DNA from: Anaerolineales bacterium
Lineage (GTDB): Bacteria > Chloroflexota > Anaerolineae > Anaerolineales > DRKV01
Length of the DNA: 64,000 nt
Assembly (NCBI GenBank): GCA_034429745.1
Contig: DAOUFY010000108.1
Coordinates: 4,136 to 68,135, forward strand
Reading direction: 5' to 3'
A program made the translations under genes and the position numbers. Under the pieces are notes generated by a model. The model did no database searches. It was not told where the DNA came from and saw nothing but the letters and a program-made list of their open reading frames with translations. Positions 24,314 through 25,486 of the stretch are shown here, piece after piece; position 1 is the stretch's first letter; each line of letters starts with the position of its first letter.

Positions 24314-25486
24314 ATGTCGGCTGATAATGATATGCACTTAAGCCAAGCTGCGGCTGCCGAACGCCAATTTCACAATCAGCGTATGGAGCATGCCGACTTT
24401 GATCAGGCACCCTTTACCATCGCTTGGGAAGTAACCCGCGCCTGTGCTTTTGCTTGTGTTCATTGCCGCGCCGATGCACAGCCCAAACCGCATCCTGACG
24501 AATTGACCACGGAAGAGGCGTTGCGTCTAATTGATCAACTGCAGCAGTTTGGAAATAATCCAATCCTAATTTTAACTGGTGGTGATCCCATGCTGCGCCG
24601 CGATTTAAATGAGTTGATCAGTTATGCTGCCGAAAAGGGTTTGCGCTGTTCACTGACACCTACTGCGACAGGTCTTCCCACCAGAGAAAGGCTGGAAAAA
24701 GCACGTGCGGCCGGTATTAAACGCATTGCGCTTTCACTTGATGCGCCATCGCCGCAAGTGCATGATGATTTCCGCCAAAGCCGCGGTTCATGGCAGCGTA
24801 CGATGAGGATTTTGCAAAACGCCCAAGATGCAGGGTTAAGCGTGCAGGTGAATACAACTGTAGCGAAACACAACGTAGAACTTTTATCGGAGATGGTGCC
24901 ATTTGTTCAACAAGTGCAGGCAGTGCAGTGGTCGCTGTTCTTTCTTGTGCCCACCGGCCGCGCTCAAGCAGAAAAAATGCTTTCTGCCGCTGAACATGAA
25001 CGGGTTTTTCATTGGCTGTACGACTTAGCTAAAAACGCTCCTTTTGATGTCAAAGCTACCGCTGCTCCGATGTACCGCCGGGTGGCAATTGAGCGCAAAC
25101 GTCAGGAACAAAGTGAGCAAGCAGGAGATATCCTTTTTCAAGGAGCTGGTTTTCAATTTGCGGATGGGTTGAATCGTCCAACTCGCGGGGTTAACGACGG
25201 CAATGGCTTTTTGTTTATTTCCCATATTGGTGAAATTCAGCCTTCCGGCTTTCTTCCGCTGACGGCAGGTATGGTGAGAAACGATAATGTGGTTGAGGTC
25301 TATCGGCATCACCCGCTCTTTGTAGAACTACGCGATCCAGATCGTTACAAGGGAACATGCGGGGGATGCGAGTATCGTTTTGTATGTGGTGGACAGCGCG
25401 GCAGAGCTTATGCCTTGACCGGTGATCATCTAGAAAGCGACCCGGCTTGCATTCTCGTTAAACAGTCCCAAACCCAAAGGAGCTAA
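24314..25486 (+). CDS. Radical SAM / SPASM-domain enzyme, AhbD/NirJ-like
   Basis: CxxxCxxC cluster (TRACAFACVHCRA), a GGDP SAM motif, and a C-terminal Cys cluster (CGGCEYRFVCGG ... DPAC) typical of SPASM domains. It is embedded between hemB and hemE. Confidence 0.8.
   Translation: MSADNDMHLSQAAAAERQFHNQRMEHADFDQAPFTIAWEVTRACAFACVHCRADAQPKPHPDELTTEEALRLIDQLQQFGNNPILILTGGDPMLRRDLNELISYAAEKGLRCSLTPTATGLPTRERLEKARAAGIKRIALSLDAPSPQVHDDFRQSRGSWQRTMRILQNAQDAGLSVQVNTTVAKHNVELLSEMVPFVQQVQAVQWSLFFLVPTGRAQAEKMLSAAEHERVFHWLYDLAKNAPFDVKATAAPMYRRVAIERKRQEQSEQAGDILFQGAGFQFADGLNRPTRGVNDGNGFLFISHIGEIQPSGFLPLTAGMVRNDNVVEVYRHHPLFVELRDPDRYKGTCGGCEYRFVCGGQRGRAYALTGDHLESDPACILVKQSQTQRS

Follow-up and report, generated by a model that had tools for sequence, protein, structure and literature searches.

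An AhbD-like radical SAM enzyme with a single auxiliary site in a haem operon of an Anaerolineales bacterium lacking a recognisable ferrochelatase

AhbD of Methanosarcina barkeri and Desulfovibrio vulgaris (EC 1.3.98.6, TIGR04545) is a radical SAM enzyme that converts coproheme to haem b and, in the strict sense of the name, has AhbA/B and AhbC as its partners in the sirohaem-dependent route. The auxiliary cluster AuxI of M. barkeri AhbD is needed to get past the monovinyl intermediate (PMC10452713). AhbDs of non-methanogenic archaea carry CX2CX5CX20-38C only, with the AuxI cysteines replaced by Glu/Ser/Ser, and this group without AuxI includes Haloferax volcanii HVO_2144 and proteins of Halorubrum, Aeropyrum and Sulfolobus (Fix et al., 2023; PMC10452713). 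The H. volcanii ahbD gene (HVO_2144) is found close to norB, and a strain deleted for ahbD no longer grows anaerobically without added protohaem, which is in vivo evidence for a role in anaerobic haem synthesis (PMC5746218). AhbD homologues are also found in CPD-pathway bacteria that have no other Ahb enzymes, according to genome comparisons by Dailey and co-workers as cited in two reviews, and AhbD-like enzymes have already been proposed for the anaerobic CPD step (PMC13564367, PMC10114771). The CPD pathway consists of UroD, CgoX, CpfC and ChdC or an anaerobic substitute for ChdC, and a 2026 review states that the known PPD, AHB and CPD enzymes account for all haem-synthesising organisms.

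We analysed a stretch of 64,000 nucleotides (the window) from an Anaerolineales draft genome of 2.94 Mb in 175 contigs, rated 98% complete. The radical SAM gene (rSAM) that a sequence-only reading had noticed between hemB and hemE is real: it is an ORF of 390 aa with an ATG start, separated by 4 nt from the upstream hemB and by 6 nt from the downstream hemE, the identities of both neighbours being established with Pfam and NCBIfam profiles. It forms part of a tight operon with the order hemA-hemC-hemB-rSAM-hemE-DUF4491a-DUF4491b-hemY-hemL.

20842..22155, forward strand: hemA, glutamyl-tRNA reductase (TIGR01035, 405.3 bits, cut-off 209.55)
22156..23079, forward strand: hemC, hydroxymethylbilane synthase (TIGR00212, 320.9 bits)
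23281..24309, forward strand: hemB, porphobilinogen synthase (NF006762, 489.8 bits)
24314..25486, forward strand: rSAM, radical SAM gene of the TIGR04053 family, AhbD-type with a single auxiliary cluster (TIGR04053, 454.7 bits, cut-off 395; AhbD model TIGR04545, 352.3 bits, cut-off 500)
25493..26554, forward strand: hemE, uroporphyrinogen decarboxylase (TIGR01464, 437.7 bits, cut-off 302.95)
26535..26927, forward strand: DUF4491 paralogue a (PF14898, 70.4 bits)
26941..27282, forward strand: DUF4491 paralogue b (PF14898, 82.9 bits)
27304..28800, forward strand: hemY, FAD-dependent coproporphyrinogen/protoporphyrinogen oxidase, either substrate type (TIGR00562, 285.8 bits, cut-off 97.85; PF01593, 173.3 bits)
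28790..30076, forward strand: hemL, glutamate-1-semialdehyde aminomutase (TIGR00713, 636.9 bits)

HemY, also named in the sequence-only reading, scores well above its cut-off. A gap of 201 bp follows hemC at the place where operon maps of relatives have hemD, and the genome has a single HEM4 domain, which forms a fusion with cobA on another contig (C83). The genome encodes NrfAH, an octahaem cytochrome c and cytochrome bd, and the organism needs haem for these proteins.

The rSAM protein contains two cysteine motifs.

24443..24466, forward strand: codons for C44-A-F-A-C48-V-H-C51, the radical SAM [4Fe-4S] motif CX3CX2C (from the translation)
25358..25450, forward strand: codons for C349-X2-C352-X5-C358-X20-C379, a single auxiliary (AuxII-type) site (from the translation and alignment)

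The first motif, CAFACVHC at residues 44-51, together with a PF04055 score of 92.6 bits, places the protein in the radical SAM superfamily; its three cysteines are shared by 93-95% of the 104 TIGR04053 rows and by 100% of AhbD rows. The C-terminal cysteines had been taken for a SPASM cluster. They represent the AuxII site alone, and the seven to eight cysteines of a full SPASM motif (AuxI plus AuxII) are not present. This CX2CX5CX20C motif (residues 349-379) recurs in 92-94% of the TIGR04053 family, is that of a Twitch-type protein with one auxiliary cluster, and fits the CX2CX5CX20-38C given for AhbD (PMC10452713). The AuxI positions, Cys in AhbD, are A250, V293, S311 and Q361 in rSAM. AuxI columns hold Cys in at most 1% of the 104 TIGR04053 rows, whereas among 26 AhbD rows three are Cys in 100% and the fourth in 62%. 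The enzyme resembles AhbD of M. barkeri and D. vulgaris in its CX3CX2C core, AuxII site, length and fold class, and differs from it in lacking the AuxI cysteines. The TIGR04053 clade shares the single-auxiliary-site pattern of non-methanogenic archaeal AhbDs, with Ala/Ser/Gln in the Anaerolineales proteins at the former AuxI positions instead of Glu/Ser/Ser.

Profile comparisons agreed with a position close to AhbD. The protein covers positions 2-363 of the 366 in TIGR04053, and its best characterised relative is AhbD, so the AhbD/NirJ-like character seen in the sequence-only reading held, AhbD being the nearer of the two: the NirJ2, AhbC, NirJ and NirJ1 models gave 238, 157, 156 and 155 bits against cut-offs of 500-650. 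AhbC-adjacent AhbDs of Chloroflexota, to which rSAM is ~41% identical, score 447-488 bits on TIGR04545. When 138 sequences were placed in a tree with AhbC-like proteins as the root, the window protein fell in a clade of 104 rows and the AhbC-adjacent AhbDs in one of 26; all eight sampled members of the former exceeded the TIGR04053 cut-off, and two of the latter scored best on AhbD. TIGR04053 is the sister clade of classical AhbD, and the haloarchaeal type of 'AhbD' belongs to it. A Natrinema protein (P0131) with 487.9 bits on TIGR04053 and 46% identity to the window protein is encoded near a NorB-like gene, and HVO_2144 is probably also a TIGR04053 member, judging from synteny. Two features count against reading rSAM as a coproheme decarboxylase, namely its score below the AhbD cut-off (352 against 500 bits) and the absence of AuxI. 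In the literature searched, no paper names the TIGR04053 family, and we came across no in vitro assay for any of its members.

It could be argued that rSAM is a SPASM-type peptide maturase merely located among hem genes, as the solved structures most similar to its AF2 model (pLDDT 91.3; radical SAM structures matched at E down to 6e-17) are the peptide-modifying SPASM/Twitch enzymes PqqE, SkfB, SuiB and CteB, the Twitch enzymes SkfB and BlsE being among the top matches. However, neither search of solved structures returned an AhbD, and these matches are therefore merely the nearest solved relatives. The models for PqqE and MftC gave 110-122 bits, and peptide-maturase models overall, including those for sactipeptide maturases, 96-122 bits against cut-offs of 265-725, and in the tree rSAM sits in the sister clade of AhbD. 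The neighbours are all haem or DUF4491 genes, with no sign of a precursor peptide or a partner gene beside rSAM, and the position in the hem operon is kept in 44 of 80 species-level loci with the DUF4491 pair. A maturase is hardly credible on this evidence.

We consider it probable, at roughly two in three, that rSAM is an O2-independent coproheme decarboxylase, that is, an AhbD-type haem synthase, acting in a coproporphyrin-type route. By analogy with AhbD biochemistry, the CX3CX2C cluster would cleave SAM, and the resulting 5'-deoxyadenosyl radical would act on Fe-coproporphyrin III, taking hydrogen from the ring A and ring B propionates. Both propionates would become vinyl groups with loss of CO2, yielding protohaem without O2 or H2O2, and the C-terminal four-Cys cluster may take off the leftover electron. 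In such a route HemALBC(D)E would provide coproporphyrinogen III, HemY would oxidise it, iron would be inserted and rSAM would act last. Coproheme would then derive from coproporphyrin, unlike in the archaeal AhbD systems, where it comes from sirohaem via AhbABC. ChdC (HemQ) of the aerobic CPD route presumably has the same substrate and product, but it has an unrelated fold and chemistry, depends on H2O2 and contains no Fe-S cluster. HemN/CgdH likewise converts the propionates of rings A and B to vinyl groups by radical SAM chemistry, but it belongs to a separate radical SAM family without a SPASM/Twitch domain.

The gene content of the genome bears on this assignment. As the sequence-only reading had noted for the cluster, ChdC is absent, and profile searches and tblastn found none in the whole 2.94-Mb genome. 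Neither AhbA/B (PF17805, with positive controls in Haloferax, Sulfolobus and Methanosarcina) nor an AhbC-like paralogue was found in it, the next best radical SAM protein scoring 86 bits, so rSAM, placed in a hemE-hemY operon, also differs from AhbD of M. barkeri and D. vulgaris in its setting and lacks the partners that define AhbD in the strict sense. HemN and HemF were not detected in the genome; its sole HemN-like protein scores as HemW (TIGR00539, 265 bits, above cut-off) and falls short of the hemN cut-off (152 against 325 bits). The sequence-only reading had named as grounds for abandoning its proposal a chdC gene and a canonical hemH elsewhere, together with clustering of rSAM among peptide-modifying SPASM maturases; neither gene was found in the genome, and rSAM falls in the sister clade of AhbD.

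HemY belongs to the O2-dependent type, yet it is kept in every such anaerobe-like operon, an observation that counts against the main reading. As HemY normally needs O2, an anaerobe would need an alternative oxidation, and rSAM might carry out O2-independent coproporphyrinogen III oxidation (the CgoN job) or, for a different cofactor, remove side chains in the manner of NirJ/AhbC. The 156-238 bits obtained with the NirJ2, NirJ and AhbC models, and the four-Cys CX2CX5CX20C motif common to rSAM, NirJ and AhbC (PMC10114771), are in line with this. These scores, however, lie far under their cut-offs, no AhbA/B, NirD/L/G/H or cd1 context was found, and the tree makes rSAM sister to AhbD with AhbC-like proteins as the outgroup. 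Retention of HemY beside rSAM in all operons indicates that rSAM is not its replacement, and either activity would leave the genome without a coproheme or coproporphyrinogen decarboxylase. We regard this alternative as very unlikely.

The coproheme decarboxylase reading is consistent with the operons of relatives. ChdC directly follows rSAM in 9 of the 44 loci (Type II operons), an adjacency that would be expected of an aerobic/anaerobic enzyme pair, and two genomes (G034 and G227) have a ferrochelatase and a TIGR04053 rSAM and no ChdC. UroD, a CgoX-type HemY and an AhbD-like radical SAM enzyme replacing ChdC are also the set described in CPD bacteria without other Ahb enzymes. Those descriptions, however, presuppose CpfC, whereas the window genome and most same-operon relatives have no CpfC and have also lost ChdC. 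The hybrid CPD-type route suggested in the sequence-only reading is thus borne out in the AhbD-like placement of rSAM and falls short in that a coproporphyrin ferrochelatase is a further requirement of CPD: the genome encodes UroD and a HemY-type oxidase, and CpfC/HemH, like ChdC, is absent genome-wide. Coproheme as the presumed substrate calls for a ferrochelatase, and the failure to find any known kind counts against the main reading.

We searched the window genome for known ferrochelatases, and PF00762, CbiK, CobN/ChlH and a divergent class II chelatase of ~405 aa were all not found. The divergent protein, which matches the Ferrochelatase and CbiX models, occurs in 4 of 50 genomes and has no homologue here. 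Two proteins encoded downstream, considered as a class I chelatase, proved not to be CobN/ChlD, the one of 1232 aa being a CheB-CheR-PAS protein and the one of 609 aa a GAF histidine kinase, and the operon gaps of relatives contain no consistent extra conserved gene. The only CbiX, a two-domain homologue of HemH/SirB, lies in the cobalamin cluster on contig C83. It is present in the window genome alone among eight ferrochelatase-less relatives, and CobN/ChlH is absent from all eight, so neither offers a general answer. Literature searches returned no paper joining ferrochelatase with Anaerolineae, and those for alternative or missing ferrochelatases only medical and unrelated papers.

The pathway might be incomplete in appearance only, with a canonical ferrochelatase, and perhaps ChdC, in the unassembled 2% of this 175-contig draft, or with the CbiX of the cobalamin cluster metallating coproporphyrin; rSAM would then be an ordinary anaerobic back-up and its link with DUF4491 coincidental. 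In line with this, among 20 whole genomes that have such an operon (Type I), one carries a ferrochelatase on another contig. But 18 of the 20 gave no match and the remaining one a weak match of 58 bits, and three relatives rated 100% complete (G013, G133 and G151) show the same absence. Where relatives keep their ferrochelatase, between DUF4491b and hemY, the window has an intact junction with a 21-nt spacer, and the seven other ferrochelatase-less same-operon relatives in the order sample have neither CbiX nor CobN. A gap of this merely apparent kind seems improbable.

In each of the 80 mapped operons, and also in the order sample, ChdC and ferrochelatase occur together or are missing together, as if a branch had been lost as a unit. 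This could mean that rSAM, with its AhbD-like scaffold, takes the place of HemN/CgdH and converts coproporphyrinogen III to protoporphyrinogen IX by decarboxylation, that HemY acts as protoporphyrinogen oxidase and that iron enters protoporphyrin IX, Type I operons then representing a protoporphyrin-type route left after loss of the CpfC-ChdC branch. The presence of HemW alone, with HemN and HemF missing, would fit. So would a phototrophic family (f31) with no recognisable ferrochelatase in 12 of 13 sampled genomes: it carries the DUF4491 pair and must metallate protoporphyrin, because BchH, PucC and HemF lie beside its hem operon, so that protoporphyrin would be accepted if the pair is a chelatase. 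(A 432-aa ORF in this operon, considered as a hidden chelatase, is PucC.) Loss of both branch-specific enzymes, however, suits coproheme decarboxylation equally, and we know of no AhbD relative that accepts a metal-free porphyrinogen. The nearest characterised relatives use iron-containing coproheme (PMC10114771), and haloarchaeal TIGR04053 members work in genomes without any coproporphyrinogen route (PMC5746218). Although more plausible than the other alternatives, a coproporphyrinogen substrate is rather unlikely.

For the AhbD-type route, the co-transcribed DUF4491a/b membrane pair would be the candidate iron inserter. Among 102 sampled hemE-positive Chloroflexota, the pair was found in all 18 genomes without ferrochelatase and in 4 of the 84 with one, and this near-perfect complementarity makes it a testable candidate for filling the missing step. 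Outside this phylum, B. thetaiotaomicron (Bacteroidota) likewise encodes DUF4491 and lacks PF00762. DUF4491a has three TM helices and an invariant cytoplasm-side tail, GHAPANPxNPRH; H27, R31, E34, D80, E83, R86, Q87, R90, N99, N102, R104 and H105 are invariant in 26 sequences, and H95 is kept in 90% or more of them. DUF4491b also has three TM helices, and the alignment shows that its TM1 His is missing. The complex of the two is predicted weakly (score 0.57, against 0.00 for the best control). The AF2 model of DUF4491a (pLDDT 90.4) had no PDB match with E < 0.9, and its weak likeness to MFS three-helix repeats and the mitochondrial pyruvate carrier is no evidence of function. The literature searched contained no paper mentioning DUF4491. 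We tentatively propose, as a possibility that is less likely than not, that DUF4491a/b is a heterodimeric six-helix inner-membrane ferrochelatase inserting Fe2+ into the porphyrin received from HemY in Anaerolineales and phototrophic Chloroflexaceae-like bacteria without HemH, and that with rSAM it forms a second terminal module parallel to CpfC and ChdC.

The sequence-only reading had called the pathway topology unusual. The reviews that place AhbD homologues in CPD-pathway bacteria without other Ahb enzymes (PMC13564367, PMC10114771) speak against this, and an AhbD-like radical SAM gene in a CPD-type operon is an arrangement already known to haem researchers. What is new is the genomic context, an AhbD-type radical SAM operon without a known ferrochelatase and with a DUF4491 pair that tracks this gap, which is shared by dozens of relatives. 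By itself, rSAM supplies a case from Anaerolineales for the idea, biochemically only proposed, that AhbD-like enzymes finish haem without oxygen in coproporphyrin-route bacteria, and these bacterial enzymes belong to the single-auxiliary-cluster subgroup, which lacks the cluster on which the second decarboxylation by M. barkeri AhbD depends. The window genome, most same-operon relatives and 12 of 13 genomes of the phototrophic family have cytochromes or complete upstream pathways, yet no recognisable ferrochelatase, and from the complementarity with DUF4491 comes a hypothesis on this gap that can be tested directly. If it is true, the DUF4491 pair would represent a ferrochelatase of a new kind, with no relation to the chelatases of classes I and II, and would add to the haem pathway an enzyme that current schemes lack.

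The radical SAM gene is the fourth in a closely packed run of hem genes on the contig that holds the window (C108 4136-68135), in a genome of 2.94 Mb and 175 contigs rated 98% complete (G000). Close homologues of the window's proteins are labelled Anaerolineales. Its spacers are 4 nt on one side and 6 nt on the other. The genes flanking the hem operon encode PAS/GAF sensor proteins, and the operon is therefore bounded there. Assignments were made with Pfam and NCBIfam, as follows.

20842-22155, + strand, hemA
22156-23079, + strand, hemC
23080-23280, gap of 201 bp between hemC and hemB
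23281-24309, + strand, hemB
24314-25486, + strand, radical SAM gene, 390 aa
25493-26554, + strand, hemE
26535-26927, + strand, DUF4491a
26941-27282, + strand, DUF4491b
27304-28800, + strand, hemY
28790-30076, + strand, hemL

These assignments confirmed the sequence-only reading of a radical SAM enzyme with a CAFACVHC motif (residues 44-51) between hemB and hemE. The operon (20842-30076) has a GC content of 0.50-0.51 compared to 0.42-0.45 on either side, and GTDB families are intermixed on the radical SAM tree; composition and tree suggest that the operon may have spread horizontally within Anaerolineales. The hemC-hemB gap lacks hemD, which relatives carry there, and the sole uroporphyrinogen-III synthase domain of the genome is found in a 560-aa CobA fusion (C83 18746-20428) that adjoins SirC and the anaerobic cobalamin cluster.

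We then placed the protein among its relatives. It scored 454.7 bits on the NCBIfam model TIGR04053, above the cut-off of 395, and 352.3 bits on the AhbD model TIGR04545, below the cut-off of 500; scores were 238-155 bits on the NirJ2, AhbC, NirJ and NirJ1 models and 122-110 bits on peptide maturase models such as MftC and PqqE. For a tree, we drew 150 representatives from 1.84 billion searched proteins and added orthologues from Anaerolineales as well as Chloroflexota proteins with AhbD-model scores of 447-488 bits that directly adjoin an AhbC-like paralogue; AhbC-like proteins served as the root. The tree split into a 26-row clade of AhbC-linked AhbDs and a 104-row clade containing the window protein, with FastTree local SH-like support of 91 and 81 at the two forks, both below the tree's mark of 95. 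All eight sampled members of the larger clade passed the TIGR04053 cut-off, and AhbD was the best model for both sampled members of the smaller. Three alignment columns hold an extra Cys in 26 of 26 AhbD-clade rows and two further columns in most, and Cys occurs there in 0-7% of TIGR04053 rows. The window protein has A250, V293, S311 and Q361 at the extra-Cys columns, where the TIGR04053 consensus is Glu, Val, Ser and Ser.

In methanogens and sulfate reducers, AhbD carries the complete SPASM motif along with two auxiliary clusters; non-methanogenic archaeal AhbDs have only CX2CX5CX20-38C, and their AuxI positions are occupied by Glu and Ser (Fix et al., 2023, PMC10452713). The Cys difference between our clades is the division reported by these authors, and on this match the sequence assigns the window protein to the single-auxiliary-cluster subgroup of AhbD-type enzymes and not to classical AhbD. 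The earlier description as AhbD/NirJ-like was correct as to AhbD type, by tree and profiles; the protein is not a classical AhbD, as it fails the TIGR04545 cut-off and lacks the AuxI cysteines. An AlphaFold2 model (pLDDT 91.3) matched PqqE, SkfB, SuiB, BlsE, CteB and anSME, and neither search of solved structures had an AhbD or NirJ structure among its matches. A second radical SAM/SPASM protein of the genome (448 aa, C123; L002 1063-2409) matches NirJ2 (124 bits) and PqqE (110 bits) weakly.

The lack of ChdC in the cluster extended to the whole of G000, where searches for chdC, hemH, hemN and ahbABC found none. AhbA/B were not found with a search that was positive in Haloferax, Sulfolobus and Methanosarcina, no AhbC-like paralogue was found, and by its scores the one HemN-like protein is HemW, a haem chaperone. 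The genome needs haem: it encodes NrfA and NrfH (C62 18052-19854), an octahaem cytochrome c (C166 2402-3805) and cytochrome bd (C102 14101-15411). No haem-copper oxidase was found in the genome. The organism resembles a microaerotolerant anaerobe that reduces nitrite to ammonium. As haem is needed and ChdC, AhbA/B, an AhbC-like protein and HemN are absent, the radical SAM enzyme is the sole candidate for the vinyl-forming step.

A Natrinema TIGR04053 protein shares 46% identity with the window protein and has a NorB-like gene nearby (L061 3813-9134). In Haloferax volcanii, ahbD (HVO_2144) is likewise close to norB, and deletion of ahbD stops anaerobic growth, which protohaem restores (PMC5746218); by synteny, HVO_2144 may be a TIGR04053 member. 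In the Chloroflexota family f48 the TIGR04053 gene adjoins NorB (G134, L064 6555-10249). This proximity to NorB nitric oxide reductase in unrelated lineages, as for H. volcanii ahbD, hints at co-regulation with denitrification. AhbD homologues occur in bacteria of the coproporphyrin-dependent pathway that lack other Ahb enzymes, and an AhbD-like protein may replace ChdC without oxygen (PMC13564367, PMC10114771). The hybrid route, which the sequence-only reading took for an unusual topology, therefore agrees with the accepted view; the original finding holds and was read correctly in its essentials, and its kind was known before. We give a probability of roughly two in three that the enzyme is an O2-independent coproheme decarboxylase.

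The coproporphyrin route requires a ferrochelatase. G000 contained no PF00762 candidate at all, and tblastn of the genome with the ferrochelatase and ChdC of relatives gave no match. CbiK and CobN/ChlH are absent from the genome, and its single two-domain CbiX belongs to the anaerobic cobalamin cluster of C83, which also holds SirC, CobA-HemD, CbiMQO, CbiF-CbiG and CbiH. Relatives have the ferrochelatase gene between DUF4491b and hemY; in the window, the DUF4491 pair (26535-27282) stands in the ferrochelatase slot. An assembly accident is improbable as the cause of the absence, given the intact 21-nt spacer between DUF4491b and hemY.

Within the order, 15 of 61 genomes have a gene that passes the TIGR04053 cut-off, and eight of these (93-100% complete) lack both ferrochelatase and ChdC. 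The DUF4491 pair is present in each of the eight, of which G000 alone has CbiX; the two carriers without the pair (G034, G050) have ferrochelatase. Downstream of the ferrochelatase-less operon of G017, a 76-aa open frame (C19 19075-19296) matches ChdC weakly (23 bits) and could be what is left of a lost chdC.

Across 201 Chloroflexota genomes, hemE was found in 102 and ferrochelatase in 88. The 18 genomes with hemE and without ferrochelatase (six Anaerolineales and 12 of the 13 of family f31) all have the pair and none has ChdC; among the 84 in which hemE and ferrochelatase co-occur, only four have the pair. Family f31 is phototrophic, with a hem operon that is flanked by BchH, PucC and HemF and lacks a TIGR04053 gene, the pair being elsewhere in the genome. 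These Chloroflexaceae-like phototrophs (L065, L067, L069-L071; G094, G156, G182, G222) lack PF00762 ferrochelatase and ChdC in 12 of 13 cases and have the pair in all 13. For Chloroflexus aurantiacus, the genes named in the genome paper are hemA, C, D, B, E, L, F, N and G/Y, with no hemH among them (PMC3150298).

A scan of GTDB species found DUF4491a relatives in 273 genomes, and we mapped the best 80 loci. About 30 have the window arrangement, rSAM-hemE-DUF4491a-DUF4491b-hemY (Type I), and 11 have, whole or in the part held by the contig, rSAM-ChdC-hemE-DUF4491a-DUF4491b-ferrochelatase-hemY (Type II). The remainder, apart from 15 that keep a divergent hemY alone beside the pair, show the pair alone, rSAM-DUF4491a-DUF4491b-hemY (Type III) or short fragments. 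Across these 80 loci, ChdC never occurs in an operon without ferrochelatase, nor ferrochelatase without ChdC. Whole-genome searches of 50 of the 80 genomes found ferrochelatase in 5/5 Type II, 1/20 Type I (plus one weak match), 0/11 with the hemY-DUF4491 unit only (plus two weak matches) and 4/11 with the pair alone. The weak matches, in four of the 50, are to a protein of ~405 aa fitting both Ferrochelatase and CbiX models at 52-57 bits (L153 520-1731; L154 890-2116), which could be a class II chelatase of divergent sequence and has no homologue in G000.

On the tree of the operon radical SAM enzymes, the ferrochelatase/ChdC state requires at least four changes. A well-supported clade of 29 species, including G000, lacks both; its ORFs are intact at 70-76% identity, and the operon is therefore maintained and not decaying. 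As kin are not independent, these counts are not to be taken as a statistical test; even so, two distant lineages and several within-order events point the same way. Phyletic complementarity and gene position make the pair a possible missing chelatase, a reading we hold tentatively and at less than even odds.

In the fifteen species with a divergently transcribed hemY (L074, L079, L081, L084, L085, L090, L092, L095, L097, L100, L102, L106, L113, L146, L149), no other hem gene lies within 8 kb of the pair, whose tightest conserved link is therefore hemY. Instead of being a chelatase, the pair could anchor HemY, accept electrons, or transport porphyrin or iron for some other chelatase. Both proteins have three predicted TM helices. 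Over 26 sequences, DUF4491a has invariant H27, R31, E34, D80, E83, R86, Q87, R90, N99, N102, R104 and H105, and at least 90% retain H95; the positive-inside rule would place these residues at the cytoplasmic membrane face. DUF4491b lacks the TM1 His. A predicted DUF4491a/b complex scored 0.57 against 0.00 for the best control, with contacts agreeing in at least 89% between runs and partner pLDDT of at least 69. This is weak support: of 80 solved complexes 58 attained the mark, and so did 2 of 110 mismatches, and the scores up to 0.60 among them came from only seven of those solved complexes and both mismatches. Fold searches with DUF4491a found no relative.

The joint loss of ChdC and ferrochelatase fits two parallel terminal modules, in which CpfC and ChdC would have their counterpart in DUF4491ab and the radical SAM enzyme. 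The CpfC and ChdC module uses an O2-derived oxidant, and an anaerobe could do without it. The O2-type HemY is retained in these operons. The co-loss would equally fit a radical SAM enzyme that makes protoporphyrinogen and a pair that metallates protoporphyrin, and the sequence data would suit either substrate alike. The haloarchaeal precedent favours coproheme, and we consider the protoporphyrinogen alternative improbable. The surroundings of the radical SAM gene expose a hole in the haem pathway that current reviews do not acknowledge, and the DUF4491 pair is a concrete candidate for filling the ferrochelatase gap.
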